This document shows positions 1,510 through 46,528 of a stretch of 50,090 nt of DNA, piece by piece (position 1 is the first letter of the stretch; every line of letters starts with the position of its first letter). The DNA comes from a virus (taxonomy: Duplodnaviria; Caudoviricetes): the IMG/VR virus record IMGVR_UViG_3300045000_000015, positions 1 to 50,090 of that record. The stretch is one strand, 5' to 3'. The notes below the pieces were generated by a model. It was not told the origin of the DNA and ran no database searches. It worked only from the letters and a program-made list of their open reading frames with translations. The translations under genes were made by a program, and so were the position numbers.

Positions 1510-4221
1510 ATGGCGATAACCGTCACGGTTGGCACGCCGAGTGCCATTCCGGCGACATCGTCTGTCAATAACGTTCCTTACCCCGCGGGGGTCGCACTGG
1601 GGGATGTCCTCATCCTGGGGATGTCCTCCGCGCAGAACCTCACCGCGCCTAGTGGTTGGACCGTTGTCCAGAACTACACGGTGTCGCCAAAGGGTGGCCT
1701 GTTCTGGATAGCAGCGACATCGACGGAAGTGGCCGCAAGTGCTGCCTCCGGCTCGTTGGCGGTATCAGAGATATCGGTAGGGGTATCCGCGGGTTGCATG
1801 CTGCTACTGAAGAACGCTGTCAACACTGCGTCTGACGTTACGTCCAATGTGGTCGACACGGTCACGACAGACACGTCCATCGTCATTCCCTCAGTGACTA
1901 CGACTGTCACCAACGACATGCTGATCATGTACTGGGGTGACAATTCGTCGAGTCACACGGTCACGGGGGTCACTCCCTCGGGGGCCACACTGGACGTTGA
2001 CTACGTCACGTCGGGGTTGGCTCGCGGTGGTGGCTTCTGGCATGAGACCATAGCTGCCGCTGGCGCCACCGGTACCCGGTCACTGGCCACGCAAACGAAT
2101 AACACGAAGTTCGGTATTGCTCTCGCGTTCAAGCCCGCGGCAGTGTCGCGTACGCCTGCCGGCATCGGCTTCGCTGGCACGTCAGGCACGGGAACCACTA
2201 AGAAGGTTGCCCGTCCTGTAGCCTCGTCCTGCGCTGGCGCTAGTGGCCGCGGAGTGCAGCTCAAGAAGACATCGTCCATTGTGGCTAGTAGCTCAGCCGG
2301 TGGATCAGGGCAGGGCATACAGCTCAAGAAGCGGTCTTTGACCGGGTCTGCGTTTGCTGGCGCGGCTGCTTACCGCATGCCCAAGGTGGCAAACCCTGTT
2401 GGCACGGCTTACGTCGGTGCGTCCGGTGTTGGCGTCCAGCTCAAGAAGCGGTCTCTGACTGCGTCCGGCTTCGCGGGCGCGTCGGGCCAGGCAGATGCCC
2501 CAGCAGCTACGTTCACCGGCAACTACCCACATGACCTACTGGGGTTGGTGCATTTTCGTTGGCAGTCGCCTGAGAACAGCTCGGGTGTGCTGGGCACCAT
2601 CGGCGATGCTGCTGCAAACAACATCCCGTCGAGCCCTTCCGATAAGACAACCATCCTGGACTACGCGGATTCGCCGTGGTTCACGCTGGTGTCCAACCCG
2701 GTAGCTGCCAGTGCCTATGTGCAGATGCGTGCTCCCGCCCTGGGCAGCACGACAGCATCGGGCGCGTCCGCTAAGGTGCGTTCCGAGCTACGGGAGCTGG
2801 ACTACCCGACCAACAATGCCGTCTCAGCGTGGGACGCTAACGCCGGTGGTCCGCACGTCGCGTATATACGGACGATGGTCACACAGGTTGTTCACGCCAC
2901 CACGCACAACGATCAGGTGTGTATCGCCCAGTGCCATAGGACCACATCGGACGGTGTGCTGTTCTACTACGATGACACCCTGGGTCAGCTCAAGTGGAAG
3001 CTGAACAGCGTCATCAATGCCGGCAACGCGGGCAGCTACACCAAGGGCACGTGGATCAACATCGCATTGGTGGTCAACGCCCACCTGTGTGACATCTATG
3101 TCAACGGGGTTCAGAAAGCTAGCGGGCTTGACCTGACCACCGGGGATTCGGATACCGCTTGCTACTTCAAGGCGGGATGTTACAACCTCACTAACCCGTC
3201 CGATGGGGACTCGAACACCGACTACTCCGAAGTGCACCTGAACGGTGTACAGGTTGGTCACGGCACGGCGTACGACCCGAACCACCCCTACGGTGCGAGT
3301 GGGCCAGGCGTTAATACCGTCTTGCACTCCCCCCGGGGTTACGCGTTCGGTGGCTCCGGCGTATCAGCTGTGGCACGTAAGAGCGTGTCTTTGGCGGCTG
3401 TTGGCTCGGTGGGTACCACGGGCCATGCTGCTGCTACTCACGTAGCCAAGGCTGCCGGGTTGACTTCTGCGGGGTCGCTGGGTAGTGCGGTCACGCTTAA
3501 GGCCGCGTCATCGGCAGGTCTCGCAACCACGGGCACCGTTGGCCGAGCTGCGGCATTGAAGTCAGTGTCACGGGCAGGGCTCAGCGTTGCTGGGACAGTG
3601 GGTCGCTCCACTATGGCCCATGTTGCGGCACGCTTGGGGGTCTCATGTGCGGGCGCCACGGGCCTATCCGTCGCTCTGCACAAGGGCAAGCTGACGGGTC
3701 AGGCTACTGCTGGTGGTGCACCGTCCGCTACGCGGGTGCCTACCAAGACACCTGTAGGCAGCGCGTTCGCCGGACCTAGTGGCCGGAGCGTGGCGCTACA
3801 CAAGGCACTGCCGTCCGGTATGGACTGTGCTGCTGGCACTACATCCGGTGTGGCATCGCATCGCGCACCATGCTCCGGTCTGATCACGGCAGGAAGCATT
3901 GGGCGAGGCGTGGCGCTACACAAGGCGCTGCTGTCCGGTATGGACTGTGCCGCTGGCACCACACACGCCGTTGCTCTGCATCGGGCACCTCGCTCGGGCT
4001 TGGTCACGGCAGGTGTCGTGTGTGTCGCTGTCGCTACTAAGTCGCGGTCTCTGGCAGGCGTTGCTGTCGCTGGTCCCGTAGCGCTGTCCGCATCACCAAC
4101 AAGCCCTCCCCTTCCCCCCCGCACACAACGCTTGGTCGGGCCGAGTCCTCCATGCGCGCATGAGACTGCGGTCATAGACGAGCCCTTCCCCGTAGCCGGT
4201 GGTCCATTGACGGTTACATAG
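1510..4221 (+). CDS. Tail fibre/spike-like protein with central polysaccharide lyase family 7 (alginate lyase-like) domain and Gly/Ala/Ser repeats
   Basis: PL7-like motifs RSELRE (~2779), QCH (2929) and YFKAGCYN (3163); ~20-aa repeats on both sides. Confidence 0.75.
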   Translation: MAITVTVGTPSAIPATSSVNNVPYPAGVALGDVLILGMSSAQNLTAPSGWTVVQNYTVSPKGGLFWIAATSTEVAASAASGSLAVSEISVGVSAGCMLLLKNAVNTASDVTSNVVDTVTTDTSIVIPSVTTTVTNDMLIMYWGDNSSSHTVTGVTPSGATLDVDYVTSGLARGGGFWHETIAAAGATGTRSLATQTNNTKFGIALAFKPAAVSRTPAGIGFAGTSGTGTTKKVARPVASSCAGASGRGVQLKKTSSIVASSSAGGSGQGIQLKKRSLTGSAFAGAAAYRMPKVANPVGTAYVGASGVGVQLKKRSLTASGFAGASGQADAPAATFTGNYPHDLLGLVHFRWQSPENSSGVLGTIGDAAANNIPSSPSDKTTILDYADSPWFTLVSNPVAASAYVQMRAPALGSTTASGASAKVRSELRELDYPTNNAVSAWDANAGGPHVAYIRTMVTQVVHATTHNDQVCIAQCHRTTSDGVLFYYDDTLGQLKWKLNSVINAGNAGSYTKGTWINIALVVNAHLCDIYVNGVQKASGLDLTTGDSDTACYFKAGCYNLTNPSDGDSNTDYSEVHLNGVQVGHGTAYDPNHPYGASGPGVNTVLHSPRGYAFGGSGVSAVARKSVSLAAVGSVGTTGHAAATHVAKAAGLTSAGSLGSAVTLKAASSAGLATTGTVGRAAALKSVSRAGLSVAGTVGRSTMAHVAARLGVSCAGATGLSVALHKGKLTGQATAGGAPSATRVPTKTPVGSAFAGPSGRSVALHKALPSGMDCAAGTTSGVASHRAPCSGLITAGSIGRGVALHKALLSGMDCAAGTTHAVALHRAPRSGLVTAGVVCVAVATKSRSLAGVAVAGPVALSASPTSPPLPPRTQRLVGPSPPCAHETAVIDEPFPVAGGPLTVT
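3788..3959 (+). repeat. 120-bp-period tandem repeat within the tail fibre gene
   Basis: gcgtggcgctacacaaggc...ccggtatggactgtgc at ~3788 and ~3908. Confidence 0.8.
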
Positions 4222-4249
4222 CAAACCAACCCCCAGAGGAGACCTACCC

Positions 4250-4582
4250 ATGGCTGTTGTCACCGTTACCCCCACCGTCCCTGTACCTAGTGGTGCTGCC
4301 CTCCCCGCTGAGTCAGCTGTCGTCACTGCGGGCACCGACTCATTCAGCGTTCGTAACAGTGGGTCGGTACTGCTGTTGTTCCACGCGACTACGGCCAATG
4401 CTCGCACTGGGACCGTGGTTACCACGGCGACTGTGGCTGGGCTCGCTGTCGCTGACCAGCCTGTGCCGGTGGTCGCTAGTGGGTACAACGTCGCTGGCCC
4501 ATTCCCTGTTGCCATCTATGGCAATCCATTGACCGTTACAGTTGACAACGTCGATCTAACTGTGCGTGCTATTGAAGGTTAG
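4250..4582 (+). CDS. Hypothetical beta-rich structural protein
   Basis: AGAGGAG RBS, Val/Thr-rich, co-oriented with tail genes. Confidence 0.7.
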   Translation: MAVVTVTPTVPVPSGAALPAESAVVTAGTDSFSVRNSGSVLLLFHATTANARTGTVVTTATVAGLAVADQPVPVVASGYNVAGPFPVAIYGNPLTVTVDNVDLTVRAIEG

Positions 4583-4601
4583 TCACGCTTAGTAGCTAAT
4601 C

Positions 4602-4951
4602 ACAATGGTGTAACTACAATAACCGAAAGGCACGTATTTACGGTTGTGATAGTTACATCGTTGTAGGCATTCGTCTATTGTGATGTGTGAATGGTTGACG
4701 GTCGTTGACCAGGCAATATAGACGGCCATCGCATTCACAAATCTATATGCGAAATGACCTCAATGAGCGTTCCGGCGCCGCGTGAGCGCCCGCGAAATCG
4801 GGCACCTTTCATCCATGCGCGTGCATGTAACACCGTGCGTGACATAGATAAATTGACAGTCGTGCTCGCGCTACGGTCTGTGACAACTAGGCATCTAAAT
4901 ACGTGCCAAAGGCGGCCCTCACGCCGCTGGGTATTTTAGCGCGAGGGCCGC
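4602..4951 (+). ncRNA. Putative structured ncRNA, 5' domain with long-range pseudoknot
   Basis: Stem 4602-4616/4650-4664 with two G-U pairs; loop 4629-4640 exactly complementary to 4896-4907; further stems TGTGAATG/CATTCACA and 4912-4920/4943-4951. Confidence 0.6.
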
Positions 4952-5008
4952 GAACGCAGACTAGCAGTGCCGCGTAGAAGCGATGTTGTATATAGACAGC
5001 CTTGAGCA

Positions 5009-5528
5009 GTTGGCCCGGGAAACAACCGAAACTTGTCCCCCGGGCCAACGTACTCCCCTGCCCTTTGTGCGAGGGAAGTGGGGGTGAGAGTCCCCCACGC
5101 ACACATCGGGCAGAAGTCTTGAGGTGGCTGGCCCGGGAACAGCAACGAGGAGCAACCATCCCCGGGCCAGCTTTAGCACCCCTCAGCCTTCCTCTCCACA
5201 CCGGCCCAGACTCCGGAGTGTGGGACTGGGGGGTCCCCTGTCGCTGCGTCGGGTCGGTGTACCCCACAGAGACAGAAATCTTGGTGGCTGGCCCCGGGAA
5301 CCGAACCCATGCGCTGATCGAGAACCCAGCCCCGGGGCCAGCACACCCCCTGTCGCTGCATACCTTCCAAACACAGCGACAGAAGTCAAGCTTTGAACGG
5401 GTTGGCCCGGGAACGGTTACGAACCAGGAGGGGAAAGAACCGCTCCCGGGCCAACTTTTGCACCCCCGGCCCGCTCTTGACCTACAACGCTTTCCACACC
5501 AAGGTCACGTTGTAGGGGACCGGGGGGT
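5009..5528 (+). repeat. Modular array of repeated stem-loops (4x module B, 3x module A, 2x module C), putative ncRNA
   Basis: GYTGGCC(C)CGGG...CCCG(G)GGCCARC at 5009-5049, 5127-5171, 5287-5342 and 5401-5455 with compensatory changes; CCCCTGYC...GRCAGAARTC modules between them. Confidence 0.8.
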
Positions 5529-5529
5529 T

Positions 5530-5757
5530 AAGGGTTGCAGCTGGCACGGCTGCATCCTTGCTTAGGCCAGCCCCCCGCACACAACCGCTGGCCGCAGTTA
5601 GTTGCCCGTGCGCAAGGGGCTGGCGTCTCTGGCCAAAACCCCCTGGTGCGCTCCCGGTCCTGAACGACGAGAGGAAACAGAAGCGCACCAGGAGGGGACG
5701 AGGCTGCATTACTCCTGTGAATGCGTTGGCGAAAACAGGAGTTGCCGTGCACTCGTC
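5530..5757 (+). ncRNA. Four further consecutive hairpins, 3' part of the structured locus
   Basis: Stems 5530-5541/5549-5559, 5566-5574/5616-5624, 5642-5652/5682-5692 and 5697-5702/5752-5757 (with inner stem 5711-5718/5735-5742). Confidence 0.5.
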
Positions 5758-5762
5758 ATCTT

Positions 5763-6050
5763 TTAGAGGGTCTGCTCCTGCACCGGCGAGGCTTCGGAGC
5801 CAGCACCCTCCCATGAGGAGATGGCCGTCTCCTCAGGTCTCGTTTTGCGCCAAGTCGCGTTGTCGTATATCGAGGAGACGTCCCAGCCTCCGAACTTCTC
5901 CGCGTCCATGAGCCGTCGGAGCCGTGTTGGCCGTTGATTGGGAGTGGGATGCATAAGCACGTCAAGCCCGGAGCCAGGAAGGGTTACCCATATACCCGGC
6001 CTTACTGTTAGGTATTCAATCACGATATCCGGCATTGCGTGCCTAGGCAT
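5763..6050 (-). CDS. Hypothetical protein divergent from the XRE gene
   Basis: AGGAGG RBS upstream on the - strand; natural-looking composition. Confidence 0.6.
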   Translation of the reverse strand: MPRHAMPDIVIEYLTVRPGIWVTLPGSGLDVLMHPTPNQRPTRLRRLMDAEKFGGWDVSSIYDNATWRKTRPEETAISSWEGAGSEASPVQEQTL

Positions 6051-6258
6051 CCCACTAACCTCCTAGCTGGACAGAGGTACGTGGCGCCCAGGTCCACGGG
6101 GCTCCGAGCGCCACTCTCACCTACTTGCGGGGGCCGCCTTCCGGGGGAAAGTTGACCTCCGCTTGACACAAGACGTTAGTAGCCGGTCAGTGGCATAATC
6201 CATAGTCAACACCCGCACAACGCGGAGTAATTTTCACGGGCTAGGCTGTGATTAGGGC

Positions 6259-7059
6259 GTGATTATGGATCTCTTCGTCGACGAACTCCGCCAAGCGCGG
6301 CAGGCAGCTGACCTGACTCAGGCACAGCTGGCTGACAAGATCGGGTATTCACAGAGCCTCGTGGCGTCCGTCGAGACCGGAAAGCGTGCACCCTCTAAAG
6401 AGTTCGCCATCCAGTGTGACTTGGCACTCGGTACAGGTGGGTTGCTAGCTCGGCTCCTGGAGCACGTCCTACGCCAGCAGACAACTCCGATATGGTTCCA
6501 GCCATGGCTAGACGTGGAGCGCCAGGCAACGGCTCTTCGTACCTATGGCCCGCTGCTAGTACCCGGACTGCTTCAGACAGAGGACTACGCCAGGGCGCTG
6601 CTGCGAGACGAAACTAGGGTGTCGACTCGCATGGAGCGCCAGGAGATCTTAGATGCTCTGTCAGACTTCATCGTCGTTATAGACGAGTATGTGTTAATGC
6701 GTCCCATCGGCAGCGCGGATGTGATGAGCACCCAGATAACTCGGCTGCTTGAAGATTCACGCGCCACAGTGCATGTCGTACCAGCGGCTACAGGCTTCTA
6801 TAGTGGGCTTGACGGCGCGTTTACGGTCGCTGTGGTCGATGGCACTGAGTGCGCGGTCGTTGACAACAGGTTACGCGGGCAAGTCGTCGAGCTGCCGGAA
6901 GACCTGGCCGTGATCCGTAGTGCATGGGAGGCGGTACGCTCGGAGGCACTCCCTAGAAGCCAATCAGCAGTGCTCTTGAAAGAAGCGTGTAACCGATGGA
7001 ACTCAAGTGGCGCAAGTCCGCTCGCTCCAATGGGAGTGGGGGAGACTGCGTTGAAGTAG
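6259..7059 (+). CDS. XRE-family HTH regulator with DUF5753 domain (WhiJ-like)
   Basis: N-terminal HTH (LRQARQAADLTQAQLA...VASVETGKRAP) and LVPGLLQTEDYARALL signature. Confidence 0.9.
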   Translation: MIMDLFVDELRQARQAADLTQAQLADKIGYSQSLVASVETGKRAPSKEFAIQCDLALGTGGLLARLLEHVLRQQTTPIWFQPWLDVERQATALRTYGPLLVPGLLQTEDYARALLRDETRVSTRMERQEILDALSDFIVVIDEYVLMRPIGSADVMSTQITRLLEDSRATVHVVPAATGFYSGLDGAFTVAVVDGTECAVVDNRLRGQVVELPEDLAVIRSAWEAVRSEALPRSQSAVLLKEACNRWNSSGASPLAPMGVGETALK

Positions 7060-7184
7060 CTGACAACCTGCCCGGCGCTGTCTACGTGCGTGACAGCAAG
7101 AACCCTACTGGCCCGTGGCTCTGCGTCAGCCACGCGGCGTGGCGTGATCTCGTCGAAGCCGTTAAGAACGACAATCTTCGATAA
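6996..7184 (+). CDS. DUF397 family protein (BldB-like partner of XRE-DUF5753)
   Basis: WRKSxRS...GGDCVEVA...VRDSK signature. Confidence 0.92.
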   Translation: MELKWRKSARSNGSGGDCVEVADNLPGAVYVRDSKNPTGPWLCVSHAAWRDLVEAVKNDNLR

Positions 7185-7206
7185 GCCATCTGACCAGGCA
7201 AAACAC

Positions 7207-7291: not shown

Positions 7292-8650
7292 GTGAAGATC
7301 GCCTATGAATACCTTCGAAAGTCCACACTGGACAAGAAGGGGATCTTTGAGCAGCACCGGAAAGACCTGTCGGCATTAGCCTCGCGACTTGATGCGGAAA
7401 TCCCAGAGGATGGGGTGTACATCGACGATGATACATCCGCATCTGAAAAGCGGGGCAAAAAGACTGCTTGGGCGAAATGCCTAGCAGACATTCGCGCTAA
7501 ACGGCCAGACTTTCTTCTTGGCTGGAAACATGACCGCCTAGGGCGGAGGCTCGGTGACTTAGAGGGCCTCGATGAACTGGCAAGCGAAGTAGGCATTCGT
7601 GTCTGGACACACACAGATGGTGACTTGTTCGCTAATCCCGCGTGGCCGTTTCTCGCCGCTCAGGCGAAGACCGAGACACGAAATACGTCTATTCGCGTCA
7701 AGGCTGCACAGGAGCTACGTCGGTCAAAGGGACTTCAGTCCGGTGGAGGATCACGCCCATTCGGTTACGCCGCAGACCGGGCAACGGTCATTTCCAAGGA
7801 AAAGGCGTGGTTCCGTGAACTGGTGATGCGACTCACTGACGGGGAGCCACGAAACGCCCTAGCTAGGGACTTCAACGTTCGTGGTATCCGCACAGCCGGG
7901 GGCACGCTATGGACCGCTGGCCGCATTGTCATGGTAGTGAGCAACCCGCGATATGCCGGATTCCTGGTCCATAAAGGCGAGGTAATCGGTAAAGGTACTT
8001 GGCCCTCGTTGATCACGCCGGAAGAGTTTGAGCTAGTCAAGTCTGCGCTTGCTGCTACTGCGCCCAAGAAAGTGGGACGTCCGGTCACAACGCTATTGGC
8101 TCACATTTTGCGATGCGGCATTTGTCTAACTCCCATGGTGGGGAGTACTTCGAAGGGCCGCAAGCGGTACAAGTGCCCGTTCCCCGAGTGCAAGCGTGTT
8201 TCGCGTAGCAGAGAACCTATTGATGCCCTCGTGACACTCCGCATTCAGGAGAAGCTGAATAGCGAAGTCATAGCCGTTGAGCTGGAAAAGATAGCGCGGA
8301 TTGTTGACGATCTGGCTCAGGTTGACGTGGAGCTGGACCTACGCATTTTCGAACTGCGGCAGAAATACACCAACGGCGCACTGTCCGGCGAGGATTTCTA
8401 TCCGATGCTTGATGACCTCCGGCAGCAGCAGAAACAGACACAAGCGAGCTACACCGGCGCTCTGACTGAGCAAGCTCAACTGGCCCGAGAAAGCACGGCT
8501 AGGGAGCGTTGGGACAGTTGGACCACTGACCAGAAGCGCCTGTTCATCAAGGCGCGTGTAACGGCGATTGAGGTTTTCCACCCAGAAGCTCCCGGTGTCG
8601 CGTGCGACCAAGACGTAAAGATCATCTGGCGACGAAGATTAACTGAATAG
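7292..8650 (+). CDS. int: Large serine integrase
   Basis: YLRKS catalytic Ser, WKHDRLGR, PFGY, NPRYAG recombinase domain, CGIC...C...C zinc ribbon, coiled coil. Confidence 0.93.
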   Translation: MKIAYEYLRKSTLDKKGIFEQHRKDLSALASRLDAEIPEDGVYIDDDTSASEKRGKKTAWAKCLADIRAKRPDFLLGWKHDRLGRRLGDLEGLDELASEVGIRVWTHTDGDLFANPAWPFLAAQAKTETRNTSIRVKAAQELRRSKGLQSGGGSRPFGYAADRATVISKEKAWFRELVMRLTDGEPRNALARDFNVRGIRTAGGTLWTAGRIVMVVSNPRYAGFLVHKGEVIGKGTWPSLITPEEFELVKSALAATAPKKVGRPVTTLLAHILRCGICLTPMVGSTSKGRKRYKCPFPECKRVSRSREPIDALVTLRIQEKLNSEVIAVELEKIARIVDDLAQVDVELDLRIFELRQKYTNGALSGEDFYPMLDDLRQQQKQTQASYTGALTEQAQLARESTARERWDSWTTDQKRLFIKARVTAIEVFHPEAPGVACDQDVKIIWRRRLTE

Positions 8651-9153: not shown

Positions 9154-9225
9154 AGCGGGGAAGAGCGCCGGTCGCTCAACGGACCCATAATCCGTCGGTC
9201 CTAGGTTCAACTCCTAGCCCCGCCA
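9154..9225 (+). tRNA. tRNA-Met(CAT), initiator-like and atypical
   Basis: Cloverleaf: acceptor AGCGGGG/CCCCGCC, D stem GAGC/GCTC, anticodon arm ACGGA-CCCATAA-TCCGT, T arm CTAGG-TTCAACT-CCTAG; CCA not encoded. Confidence 0.85.
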
Positions 9226-9228
9226 CGG

Positions 9229-9278: not shown

Positions 9279-9455
9279 TTAGACCCCTGTTTTTGCCCTT
9301 GCTGCCCTGATCTCTGCTGATGATCGTGACCTTCTGATCGCTTGGCAGAGGTGCTCTTTTTTGGTCAGTTTTGTCACGGTTGAGAAGTCCAGCTCACGGG
9401 CTAGAGCGCGGAGCTGAGCCACCGTGAGGAATTCTAGAGCTATGTAGTCAGTCAA
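9279..9455 (-). CDS. 58-aa Rho-N/HeH(SAP)-like small protein
   Basis: Not in the ORF track; TTG start with AGGGAG RBS; LTVAQLRALARELDFSTVTKLTKKEHLCQAIRR resembles the Rho N-terminal domain pattern. Confidence 0.6.
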   Translation of the reverse strand: MTDYIALEFLTVAQLRALARELDFSTVTKLTKKEHLCQAIRRSRSSAEIRAARAKTGV

Positions 9456-10021: not shown

Positions 10022-11704
10022 ATGCCTGTTGCGCACACCACGCGGCTTCCCATAGGTGCTAAGTACAGCGAGAAGCGCGCCGAGCGTGCCGTCCGGTTCA
10101 TCGAGAAAGCGACGGTGCACACGAAGTCTTCATGGGCCGGCAAACCGTTCAACCTAGATCCGTGGCAGGAAGGCTCCGCGCGCCGCGATGAGTCCGGCTT
10201 GTGGGTTATGGACGGCATCGTTCGCCCACTGTTCGGCACCGTGCGGTACAGCACCATGCATCAGCGCTGGGTGCGGCAGTTCACCCTTGCTTGGATCGAG
10301 CTAGCCCGCAAGCAAGGCAAGTCAGAGCTTGTCGCTGCCCTGGGGCTGTACCTGTTGATCGCGTGTGGCGAACCAGGGGCCGAGATCTACGGGGCTGCGT
10401 CTGACAAGGATCAGGCGTCCATGGTCTTCAACGTCGCGCGTGACATGGTGCAGCTTTCCCCGGTCCTCTCACGCATGCAGAAGCGTGGGGAAATCAAGGT
10501 GGTTGACTCCACCAAGCGCATCATCCACGTACCGTCCCGGTCGTTCTATCGGGTCATCGCCGCGGATGCTGCCGGCAACCTGGGGGCCAACCCGTACGCC
10601 GTGCTCTTTGACGAGGTGTTGGCCCAGCCTGACGAGAAGCTGTGGGACGCGATGCGCCAGGGCTTCGGAACGCGGGCAGAGTCGCTGCTCATCGGCATCA
10701 CGACGGCCGGCTGGTCCCGCGAGACGTTCGCGTTCAACGAACACACCTTCGGGCTACAGGTCGCCGAAAACCCCGACATGCAGCCGACACGCTTCGTCTA
10801 TATAGCACATGTCGATGAGGGCACCGACTGGAAAGACGAGTCACGTTGGCACGAAGCCATGCCCGGTCTGGGCTCGTTCTTCGACATCCAGACCGTACGG
10901 GACGAGGTCACCGAGCTAGAGAACAAAGGCGACCTCTCCCAGATAGACAACTTCAAGATCTTCCGGCTCAACATGTGGGGCACTGGCAAGAAACGCTGGC
11001 TAGACCTTGCTGTCTGGGATGAGTCGGAGGACACGGCTGGGTGGCCGGAAGAGCTAGAAGGCATCCCAGCCATCGGCGGCTTGGACCTGGCGGAGACCAC
11101 GGACCTAGCGTGCTGGCTCCTGTTGTTCCGTACAGCTGACCGTACGTTCGTGCTGCCCAGGTTCTTTATCACCCGCAAGGCTATTGACCTGAAGCACAAG
11201 CGGATGAAGCGGCAGTTCCTTCAGTGGGAGCAAGACGGGTTACTGACGGTTTTCGAGACTGACGTACATGATATCGATGCGATCGAGGCTCGTATCATGA
11301 GCGACCTCGATACATATCATGTGCAGGCCATCGGATACGACGGCTGGAATGCGGTCTCCGTGGCTAGCCACGTCGAGACGCGTACCAGCGTCCCCATGGT
11401 CAAGGTCCCCCAGTCGACAACTCGCATGAACTCTGGGTCAAAGGCGCTCACCAGTGCCATGGGCTTGCGGCAACTGTCCACAAACCACAATCCGCTGATG
11501 CGCTGGATGGCTGACAACGTTGCGTACAAACAGGATTCTGAACTGAACATCAAGCCGGACAAGGCTGCGAGCACGGACAGCATCGACGGTATCTCAGCCC
11601 TGGTCAACGCGCTGTGTGTCGCAGAAGGCATGCCCGAGCTTGTTGAAGCAAACCTCTTCGTCTTCGACGGGGACGAAGACACGGAGGATGACGAGTGGAA
11701 CTAA
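10022..11704 (+). CDS. terL: Terminase large subunit
   Basis: ARKQGKS Walker A, VLFDE Walker B, ITTAG coupling motif, GGLDLA nuclease motif, SIDGISAL. Confidence 0.96.
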   Translation: MPVAHTTRLPIGAKYSEKRAERAVRFIEKATVHTKSSWAGKPFNLDPWQEGSARRDESGLWVMDGIVRPLFGTVRYSTMHQRWVRQFTLAWIELARKQGKSELVAALGLYLLIACGEPGAEIYGAASDKDQASMVFNVARDMVQLSPVLSRMQKRGEIKVVDSTKRIIHVPSRSFYRVIAADAAGNLGANPYAVLFDEVLAQPDEKLWDAMRQGFGTRAESLLIGITTAGWSRETFAFNEHTFGLQVAENPDMQPTRFVYIAHVDEGTDWKDESRWHEAMPGLGSFFDIQTVRDEVTELENKGDLSQIDNFKIFRLNMWGTGKKRWLDLAVWDESEDTAGWPEELEGIPAIGGLDLAETTDLACWLLLFRTADRTFVLPRFFITRKAIDLKHKRMKRQFLQWEQDGLLTVFETDVHDIDAIEARIMSDLDTYHVQAIGYDGWNAVSVASHVETRTSVPMVKVPQSTTRMNSGSKALTSAMGLRQLSTNHNPLMRWMADNVAYKQDSELNIKPDKAASTDSIDGISALVNALCVAEGMPELVEANLFVFDGDEDTEDDEWN

Positions 11705-28331: not shown

Positions 28332-28385
28332 TCCGGCCAACCCGGTGCGTCCCTTGATGTAGCCCCCTTCACCGAGGGAACGACA

Positions 28386-28430
28386 ACAGCCCCCTACCCG
28401 GCGCCCACAAGGCGTCAGGTAGGGGGCTGT
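28386..28430. terminator. Putative bidirectional terminator at the convergence of the arms
   Basis: 13-bp perfect stem ACAGCCCCCTACC/GGTAGGGGGCTGT. Confidence 0.7.
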
Positions 28431-28468
28431 CTGTGTCTGTAGGAGCCTCTGTAGCTTGATCAACATGG

Positions 28469-28789
28469 CTACCCTACCGGAGGGACGACCCATGCTTGAA
28501 CTAGAGCCAGCGTGGGCGCCTGAGCGCTACGTTTCCCGATGGGATCGGATGGCGCTGCCCCATCACGATGGACCACGCCCAAGCGGCAGGTCTTCGCGTA
28601 CCGGCAATCCCGCTTGCACGCGATGCACGTCCCGACGTCCCGCGCGCCGTCCGGGCGCCGTTGGAACTGGTAGACGTGCTGCCTCAGCTGGCAACAGGCA
28701 CAGGTCGCTGAGGCTGTCGTGAACCCTTCGACCTGGCGCCCGCTGACTCGGTCCTTGGTTCGCTCCGCGGGCGGCTTCCACAGCCTCAC
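28469..28789 (-). CDS. Cys-rich (zinc-finger-like) hypothetical protein
   Basis: CACC...CIAC..C; GTGA coupling. Confidence 0.5.
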   Translation of the reverse strand: MRLWKPPAERTKDRVSGRQVEGFTTASATCACCQLRQHVYQFQRRPDGARDVGTCIACKRDCRYAKTCRLGVVHRDGAAPSDPIGKRSAQAPTLALVQAWVVPPVG

Positions 28790-36894: not shown

Positions 36895-37086
36895 TTAGTT
36901 GTCCGATGGTGCCTCACTAGGATGATCAACGACGTTCAAGATGGCAGTTGCCAGTCGGTAGAACGCTGTGTCGAGCGTGCTCGACGGAAGGCTTCTTTGA
37001 TGGCGGCTAAGCTCCGCCAGGTCCGTCTTGGTTAGCTCCAAGACCACGACGTGTGTCACGTCTCGGTGATAGCTTTTTACTAACAT
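36895..37086 (-). CDS. Hypothetical protein
   Basis: AAGGGAG RBS before ATG 37086. Confidence 0.5.
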   Translation of the reverse strand: MLVKSYHRDVTHVVVLELTKTDLAELSRHQRSLPSSTLDTAFYRLATAILNVVDHPSEAPSDN

Positions 37087-37104
37087 CCTGTCTCCCTTCG
37101 ACAG

Positions 37105-37177
37105 TGGGGATGGCGGGAGTTGCACCCACAACACACCGGATTCTTACCAGCGGCTCTATCTGTTGGCCTACATCCCC
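37105..37177 (-). tRNA. tRNA-like gene, anticodon ambiguous (loop TAAGAAT, nominally AGA)
   Basis: Acceptor GGGGATG/CATCCCC plus A, D stem GGC/GCC, anticodon stem GCTGG/CCGGT, T arm GTGGG-TGCAACT-CCCGC; 73 nt. Confidence 0.6.
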
Positions 37178-37250
37178 TGTGCGCCTAACCCATCGCGCAC
37201 TTCATCCGCTCCCGACAAACTCACCTGATCAGCGGATCTTCCCCGAGTTG

Positions 37251-39502: not shown

Positions 39503-39683
39503 CTTCCCGGTCCTCCGTGGGCACGGCGTGATGCACCGCGGCGAACTTGGCGGCCAGTGCCTTCTTGCGCGCGACTTCCGCCAACCGCTCCGCTTCCTTG
39601 CGAGCTACGGCGCGCTCCTTGCGGTGCAGTCCCATGAGCGCGCCGTAGCTCTTTTGGTCGATGAGGTGTCGTAGTTGTGTCAT
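39489..39683 (-). CDS. Hypothetical protein
   Basis: Coupled starts/stops, RBS. Confidence 0.55.
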   Translation of the reverse strand: MTQLRHLIDQKSYGALMGLHRKERAVARKEAERLAEVARKKALAAKFAAVHHAVPTEDREDAAA

Positions 39684-40075
39684 CTCTCCCCCTGTAGTAC
39701 GCCGCGTGCTGGCGGGTTGGCCAGGTAGCCAACGGCACGCAAAAAGAACCCTGGGTCATCCCTCGCCAAGCCCAGGGTGTTGTTACACGGACGGCAGAGA
39801 AGCCCCCGTACCTCGCCGGTCCCATGGTTGTGGTCAACGCTCAGCCGTCTACTAGCCCCCGTTGCTCGCTGGCAGATAGCACAGCGCCTCCCCTGTGCCT
39901 CGTAGACCGCTTGGTATTCCTCTTCGCTTATCCCGTAGGTGGCTTCGATCCGCTGGCCGTGCGCGCGTTCTGAGCGGGCGCGCTTGGCTGCCCGGTGGCA
40001 GGCGAGGCACCGTGGCCCGGGGTAGTCGAGCTTCCGTGTCGTGGAGCCACAGTCCCTACAGCTTCTTGGCTTCAC
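39680..40075 (-). CDS. Endonuclease VII (Holliday junction resolvase-like)
   Basis: YGIS...Q..RCAIC...LSVDHNH..GEVRGLLC..CN..LG. Confidence 0.9.
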   Translation of the reverse strand: MKPRSCRDCGSTTRKLDYPGPRCLACHRAAKRARSERAHGQRIEATYGISEEEYQAVYEAQGRRCAICQRATGASRRLSVDHNHGTGEVRGLLCRPCNNTLGLARDDPGFFLRAVGYLANPPARGVLQGER

Positions 40076-46046: not shown

Positions 46047-46214
46047 GAATCCTCCATCAAGGGGTTGGCGTCGTCCGACGCTCGGTGTTCTTCGCGTGCT
46101 GCGTCTGCCCACGCGTCAAAGCAGCTGGCGCACAAGAGCGCCTGGCCCAGGTCTGTGGTTCGTCCACAGCCCGTGCAGTAGTTCACGGGTCGCTCCCCTC
46201 CTTGGGGAAGCAGA

Positions 46215-46245
46215 AGAGCGACCCTCCGGAGTGGAGGGCCGCTCT
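46215..46245 (-). terminator. Putative intrinsic terminator
   Basis: AGAGCGGCCCTCC/GGAGGGTCGCTCT stem on the - strand followed by a pyrimidine-rich tail. Confidence 0.45.
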
Positions 46246-46297
46246 GTGCTTGCTAGGTGTTGCTAGCGCTGTGGCGAGATCGATCTGCACCTTGGCT

Positions 46298-46528
46298 TCA
46301 TCGAGTGTCATGACAGCTTTTCTCTTCATCCACCCCTAAGCCGGCCGCCGTCAGCCGCTCGTACCTCGATAGAGCCAACCTAAGACGCTTCACGCCTTCG
46401 AGATCGAGCACGATTGTTGTCTCTTCGTCGCCGACGTCCGCCGTCAACTCCAACCCTTCTGGTGTCTCGCGCAGCTCAACCTGTGTTGAGTAGCCGACAC
46501 CCCAGATGCGTGCGTACCAATAACTCAC
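46298..46528 (-). CDS. Hypothetical protein
   Basis: AGGAG RBS. Confidence 0.55.
   Translation of the reverse strand: MSYWYARIWGVGYSTQVELRETPEGLELTADVGDEETTIVLDLEGVKRLRLALSRYERLTAAGLGVDEEKSCHDTR

Follow-up and report, generated by a model that had tools for sequence, protein, structure and literature searches.

CsrB and RsmZ are RNAs in which repeated hairpins bind many copies of one protein. Few long noncoding RNAs of phages have been described, and the available part of PMC12286853 presents their roles as largely open. GOLLD and ROOL, covered in the same part of that source, are phage RNAs of several hundred nucleotides, heavily paired and of obscure role. TIGR arrays consist of tandem stem-loop units with variable interiors and occur in phages, as set out in the available parts of PMC12045711 and bioRxiv 10.64898/2026.09.09.750476. 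YrlA and YrlB are made up of tandem hairpin-closed units, and Y RNAs are known in actinophages (PMC4201824, available part). In pLS20, the conAn system comprises a small protein gene followed, on the same strand, by a structured noncoding region of 260-600 nt (PMC8191782, available part).

The array described here lies in a contig of 50,090 nt (IMG/VR record IMGVR_UViG_3300045000_000015); this whole stretch is called the window. The contig is that of an uncultured, temperate, siphovirus-like phage, and its gene content in Pfam scans includes terminase, portal, HK97-type capsid, tail, DNA polymerase A and serine integrase. Identity to cultured phages is at most 37% for the polymerase, capsid and terminase. 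At the two contig ends (1-190 and 49900-50090), ~190 nt overlap with a single mismatch; the genome is therefore probably circular and complete, although its record gives a CheckV figure of 66%. Named homologs of the XRE-DUF5753 regulator (38-48% identity) are found in Micromonospora, Nonomuraea and Sphaerisporangium; homologs of the XRE-DUF5753/DUF397 pair in these genera suggest an actinomycete host. The array fills the gap from the end of a plus-strand structural gene (4582) to the start of the XRE gene (6259). On its preferred strand (minus), it is divergent, together with the small gene orf95, from the XRE/DUF397 pair and the serine integrase (plus). The neighbouring features are:

5763..6050, minus strand: orf95, a 95-aa gene directly upstream of the array (AGGAGG, 8-nt spacer, ATG)
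6076..6122, minus strand: leader hairpin upstream of the orf95 ribosome-binding site (83% over 47 nt to locus L290)
6259..7059, plus strand: XRE-family HTH and DUF5753 regulator (Pfam PF13560/PF19054), divergent from orf95 and the array
6996..7184, plus strand: DUF397 partner of the XRE regulator (Pfam PF04149, E 4.8e-21)
7292..8650, plus strand: large serine recombinase, the integrase (Pfam Resolvase, Recombinase and Zn ribbon)

The array is a real, uncatalogued modular element, found in one genome. It contains four copies of repeat B, three of A and two of C. Exact patterns locate B at 5009-5049, 5127-5171, 5287-5342 and 5401-5455, A at 5055/5109, 5235/5271 and 5347/5378, and C at 5172/5195/5222 and 5456/5493/5516. 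All nine modules are where the initial annotation had placed them, and its order, B-A-B-C-A-B-A-B-C, is correct; on the minus strand this reads C2-B4-A3-B3-A2-C1-B2-A1-B1. The annotation had also ended the block at 5009 and 5528. It does not stop there; hairpins adjoin it on both sides, over ~4910-5810. Modules and flanking hairpins are:

4602..4664, plus strand: hairpin F, long, behind the last plus-strand structural gene (-29.1 kcal/mol on plus, -18.4 on minus)
4912..4951, minus strand: hairpin G, then CUUU (folding)
5001..5049, minus strand: module B1 and CAAG linker, then only the 5' half of an A module (patterns, folding)
5055..5121, minus strand: module A1 and CAAG linker (patterns, folding)
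5127..5171, minus strand: module B2 (19 pairs, five of them G-U, on minus; 13 pairs on plus)
5178..5234, minus strand: module C1, octamer paired; wobble pairs favour plus (patterns, folding)
5235..5283, minus strand: module A2 and CAAG linker (patterns, folding)
5287..5342, minus strand: module B3, with one extra C-G pair (interior similar to shuffles, p 0.8 on either strand)
5347..5387, minus strand: module A3 and linker (patterns, folding)
5401..5455, minus strand: module B4 (interior-shuffle p 0.001 on minus)
5462..5528, minus strand: module C2, stem of G/C runs, GGUGUGGA octamer in the loop (patterns, folding)
5566..5624, minus strand: hairpin D, a divergent B-like copy, then CAAG linker (23 pairs on minus)
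5639..5695, minus strand: hairpin E, then UUUU on minus (interior-shuffle z -4.3 on minus, -3.4 on plus)
5697..5757, minus strand: hairpin H (folding)
5766..5809, minus strand: hairpin J, inside the end of orf95 (folding)

Repetition in the array has two levels. A unit C-B-A-B-(A) of ~280 nt (274-294 nt) occurs twice, and each copy itself contains the B-A repeat; distances between B starts are 118, 160 and 114 nt. Outside the array, the window contains no full B hairpin, no A 3' motif and no C 5' or 3' motif. The repeated-arm statistic, in which a 9-mer and its reverse complement are both present three times, was reached by none of 500 shuffles. When the window is divided into 124 overlapping tiles of 800 nt, a score of 2 or more is confined to the two that cover the array. 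Hairpin D is a weak fifth B-like copy with an altered stem (13.9 bits, E 0.11 with model R1). The region 4590-4960 also shows structure, with z -4.0 on plus and -3.6 on minus. Hairpin F is a candidate end of the converging plus-strand transcript. The terminator scan makes no call at hairpin G on the minus strand, and we therefore infer rather than observe that G is a candidate 3' end of the minus-strand RNA.

Pairing in all three module types is kept by compensated changes. The second B pair is U-A in two copies and C-G in the other two, and B3 has an additional C-G pair inserted. The A stems exchange C-G for T-A, and the C stems have A-T in C1 and G-C in C2, a change missed by the initial annotation. 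The compensatory pairing claimed for A and B is thus borne out, with four events in total including the one in C; because no array homolog was reached, these four come from paralogous copies alone. In the B alignment 93% of cells are paired, versus 22-61% when partners are slid, and 9 of the 15 B pairs are invariant among the four paralogous copies of this one genome.

Conservation is located in the GC clamps, in the linkers CAAG and UGC-WAAA, and in one octamer. CAAG follows every B, UGC-WAAA stands between C and B, and the octamer GGUGUGGA is common to both C modules, looped in C2 and paired in C1. The hairpin tips diverge in sequence and length and are mostly paired; B interiors range from 19 to 33 nt with no common length. 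What had been described as AAC-rich variable loops are mostly stem extensions with G-U pairs on the minus strand, where B1 forms 17 pairs (2 G-U), B2 19 (5), B3 23 (6) and B4 21 (1). The view that selection is directed at structure, and that the array is not a recent duplication, is upheld. The A1 interior on the plus strand (5070-5100) carries AGGGAA and a 7-bp hairpin with a T-loop-like loop, which we take to be reminiscent of cobalamin and FMN riboswitch cores; Rfam gave no cobalamin or FMN match for this interior.

The array RNA is likely, but not securely, the minus strand. Fold z is -10.2 on minus versus -6.2 on plus, with no shuffle in 100 as stable on either strand. Over positions 1-47,400, 18 of 316 tiles have z <= -3.5; five of the 18 lie in 4951-5850 and all five are stronger on minus. 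When the outer arms are held fixed and the interiors of B1-4 are summed, minus gives z -3.6 (p 0.001) against shuffles and plus gives z -1.4 (p 0.085). Just inside the B clamp, the innermost neighbour of the clamp reads G-U, G-U, G-C and A-U on minus, paired in 4/4 copies in the alignment register, and tandem U-G pairs lengthen each of the three A stems. Energy is lower on minus in eight of the nine B, A and C modules; it should be noted that composition favours the G/U-rich strand. A strand-neutral mismatch count is 6:1 (p 0.125) and underpowered, and a hand-registered count of 19:6 has p 0.015 against 0.5 and p 0.19 against the composition-expected 0.655.

The initial annotation implied the plus strand, with a structured noncoding RNA starting just before B1 and presenting open A/C-rich loops. 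This is not supported, as the fold is better on minus and the variable parts are mostly paired there, and a plus-strand RNA of this kind is unlikely. The plus strand does fold well too (z as above), A3 and C1 score better on it, and C1 has three G-U pairs in that orientation. The AGGGAA and T-loop hairpin of A1 also belong to that strand, and a TATAGA hexamer is found at 4991, just before B1, but it is without the final T and without a -35 box. Against these, B interiors exceed shuffles only on minus, and the lower energies of the eight modules there are partly a compositional advantage.

Hairpins of the B type are also found elsewhere. A near-identical one lies 12 nt downstream of 5S rRNA genes at three loci (L017, 2999-3039; L055, 428-468; L063, 518-558). 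Its A/C-rich face is on the rRNA strand, a polarity opposite to the minus-strand call, so a G/U-rich face does not always mark the transcribed strand. These 5S-associated hairpins are probably convergent, and they bear on the main rival reading, in which the array is a series of terminators or insulators with long stems that arose by local duplication and yields no free RNA product. The block does lie exactly between two converging units, the late structural operon on plus and the module of orf95, XRE and integrase; short T-runs (TTTA/TTTT) follow B2 and B4 on plus, UUUU and CUUU follow E and G on minus, and B-like hairpins occur between two co-directional genes (L062) as well as behind 5S rRNA genes. 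Also in favour of such a stack, 15-bp stems resist antitermination in pLS20 according to the available part of PMC10325885. However, no outer stem of a B, A or C module is among the sites called by the terminator scan (four versus 1.5 expected). Terminators need neither three alternating module types nor conserved unpaired linkers and an octamer, and ~1.2 kb far exceeds what termination needs. A terminator stack is considered somewhat unlikely.

Several further repeats lie around the array. An 11-bp direct repeat (4706-4716 and 7191-7201) flanks the array, orf95, XRE and DUF397, and is possibly a cassette boundary or an operator; its 7191 copy is part of an imperfect inverted repeat that precedes the integrase and is a candidate attP. 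Segments 4629-4640 and 4896-4907 are perfect inverted copies of 12 nt, through which the loop of hairpin F could pair with a plus-strand segment 255 nt downstream, and a 15-nt inverted repeat connects 4725-4739 with 5716-5730.

The array can also be read as a DNA-level element, made up of single-stranded hairpins or palindromic protein sites for replication, packaging or recombination, or REP-like repeats. The palindromic cores in the B arms fit such an element, as do the 11-bp direct repeat and the 12-bp inverted repeat (4629/4907). It is nevertheless a quite improbable explanation: the exact B pattern occurs in none of 401 Actinomycetes-class genomes and is thus not a common host repeat, the replication genes are at a distance of ~22 kb or more by either route round the circle, and one-sided wobble extension is unexpected for double-stranded sites.

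Coding was considered as a source of the repeats. Two reading frames, 5002-5565 on plus (187 codons) and 4887-5267 on minus, are open, but the repeat copies fall in different frames, so that the plus-strand frame does not explain them and the noncoding origin proposed in the initial annotation is supported. It has no SD and no Pfam or NCBIfam match, and neither frame belongs to a Pfam family. That the array is a by-product of either frame is hardly credible.

Known RNA systems were compared feature by feature. The array is a member of none of GOLLD/ROOL, conAn and TIGR by the features tested, and no Rfam family covers it, GOLLD, ROOL, YrlA, cobalamin and 6C included: the only gathering hit in the window is the tRNA at 9154, and at E <= 10 only sub-threshold hairpin look-alikes appear, mostly miRNA models. 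It shares heavy pairing and length with GOLLD and ROOL as characterised in the available part of PMC12286853, but is predicted to be a row of separate repeated hairpins rather than one pseudoknotted fold, and has no tRNA island next to it, the closest tRNA being 3.6 kb away from the last module. The likeness to conAn is that orf95 stands directly before a structured noncoding block on the same strand. In the available part of PMC8191782, conAn heads a long co-directional operon, whereas the array RNA would run into converging genes; no operon to antiterminate is evident, and a conAn antiterminator was rejected although the small gene and the RNA are present. The array is also far more strongly paired and internally repeated than conAn as described there.

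Repeated-hairpin RNAs of other kinds fare similarly. CsrB and RsmZ offer the closest functional analogy, but the array is conserved at stem bases and linkers, not in loops, and ANGGA occurs once per strand in 1 kb, which led to rejection of a sponge of this class. A bacterial Y RNA was rejected: the GNCGAAN0-1G motif expected near the 5' end is on neither strand, no TROVE/Ro60 gene was found where one would be expected within 4 kb, and the YrlA Rfam model has no match in the array. A retron, DRT or DGR RNA was also rejected, since reverse transcriptase (PF00078) was not found in a genome that looks complete. In line with the annotation, RT and Ro60 (PF00078 and PF05731, TROVE) were not found in the phage, with positive controls, and Pfam scans of 90 window ORFs and one further sequence detected no Cas family. 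Nor is the array a CRISPR or mini-CRISPR array, in agreement with the annotation; it has three module types and unequal B spacing, without near-identical repeats and constant spacers. Hammerhead, hairpin-ribozyme, T-loop, CCA-end and box C/D motifs are not repeated across modules.

Guide arrays share with this locus constant flanks, variable interiors and an adjacent small gene, a layout like that of stem-loop TIGR arrays in the available part of PMC12045711. A processed guide array had been among the options put forward; in the form considered here, with variable tips directing an unrecognised phage protein (orf95) to targets, it is poorly supported and highly improbable. Three module types replace the single type of TIGR, and box C/D-flanked spacer pairs are missing. 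Specifically, the TIGR test looked within each stem for two intervals of box C, 9 nt and box D within 15 nt of each other; it found no pair of these 14-nt intervals on either strand in 4860-5860. Nop (PF01798) and IS110 (PF02371) were not found in the phage with positive controls, although more remote Tas proteins may escape these models; RT and TROVE families were likewise not found. The interiors are mostly paired and uneven in length (19-33 nt), and nothing in the phage itself, in 50,697 phage records or in plasmids (best E 0.5) matches the variable segments significantly.

Homologs of the array were sought widely, and none was found in any searched set; all structural evidence comes from one genome. 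By blastn, the array has no match in 50,697 phage records and one repeated 30-nt match (E 0.5) in 72,556 plasmids. Three samples of actinobacterial genomes (301, 221 and 221) gave one match each in DNA searches, of which two are chance and the third is the orf95 leader hairpin and not the array. Viral-contig pattern scans gave 1, 1, 1 and 3 matches, all rejected because of their unrelated or coding context. A metagenome scan with the B pattern showed no A or C module or second B among the 120 loci listed of ~320 estimated. Model R1 matched none of five genomes, and on sets of 100 and 18 loci it found weak single hairpins only. No similar block accompanies XRE (29 viral and 80 genomic loci), terminase (21 loci) or the 218-aa gene (11 loci), and four prophage regions with 41-42% terminase identity have little else in common with the phage. 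No description of the array stands among the papers listed by searches of openly accessible literature. The closest homologs of XRE (84%) and orf95 (61%) are each on two contigs, the longest being 4,955 bp in both cases; this shared length suggests that a related cassette exists, and these contigs may carry the missing array homolog.

The small gene orf95 likely heads the transcript that carries the array. Its protein has a single homolog (P0124) among 1.84 billion representatives, with 61% identity over residues 1-71 and the same start codon. Four more weak matches are to short stretches of longer proteins, and both of those inspected are repetitive. There is no Pfam, PHROG, NCBIfam or PADLOC match for orf95; its structure model has a pLDDT of 43 and is unusable, and a structure-atlas search gave no match. 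The start and first codons lie within a long hairpin with 26-nt arms (5943-6056), which could gate orf95 translation.

Leader hairpins precede orf95 and one other small ORF. The orf95 leader hairpin matches L290 at 1501-1547 (genome G1053, E 1.3e-5), at one locus only, where it stands before an SD and start codon, precedes a small ORF and lies downstream of an HTH-like ORF recognised by eye. The two are possibly a small family of leader elements. As a query, the leader hairpin has matches in 32 of 121 genomes at E <= 0.05; the hairpin itself is present at one of 24 loci examined (one locus from an unpublished genome is left out of the set), and XRE, DUF397 and orf95 have no matches at these 24. 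No promoter was detected by consensus scans. In an unrelated phage contig (L184, ~3790-4400), successive small genes are preceded by a long interrupted stem that recurs and has an SD after it.

Other features of the phage genome were recorded. A tRNA-Met(CAT) lies at 9154-9226, between terminase genes, and after it a 58-aa minus-strand ORF (9279-9455) has a weak Rho N-terminal domain match (E 0.006). A virion-like gene of 903 aa that includes an alginate lyase domain (1510-4221) separates the HNH gene from terminase and is not part of the tail cluster. Further strongly folding tiles, with z from -4.5 to -8.5, are 39601-39750, 37051-37200, 10801-10950, 28351-28500 and 46201-46350.

The reading tentatively preferred is that the array is the noncoding 3' part of a minus-strand transcript, which may serve as a multi-site scaffold or decoy gripped by a protein at its conserved helix bases and linkers. 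A promoter in 6125-6259, divergent from XRE/DUF397 and probably controlled by that pair, would start the orf95 mRNA, which would continue for ~850 nt to hairpin G. Modules would fold locally during synthesis into about a dozen helices of 15-23 bp. Since it is the stem bases and junctions that are conserved and not the tips, the RNA would offer repeated sites for protein binding instead of guides. Its partner may be the orf95 protein or a host nuclease that binds dsRNA, for example RNase III, and such a nuclease could in addition cleave the RNA into units. Expression in the lysogen or during the lysis-lysogeny decision is suggested by the neighbouring regulator and integrase genes. A more specific proposal, and a distinctly unlikely one, has orf95 and the array as the protein and RNA halves of one new system that XRE/DUF397 would control. 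The transcript would be cut into B-A and C-B units, whose constant stems and CAAG linkers would load the orf95 protein, and exchangeable tips would determine which molecule of the host or of a rival phage each unit engages.

What the array means depends on which reading is correct. If it is only a stack of terminators, it is an unusually elaborate insulator of modest interest. If it is a noncoding RNA, a self-compensated hairpin array of three module types, more than 1 kb long and beside a regulator and an integrase, would be a new architecture. The regulator pair, the small protein and the RNA would, if the proposal is true, be a compact unit that ties an RNA to XRE/DUF397 regulators.
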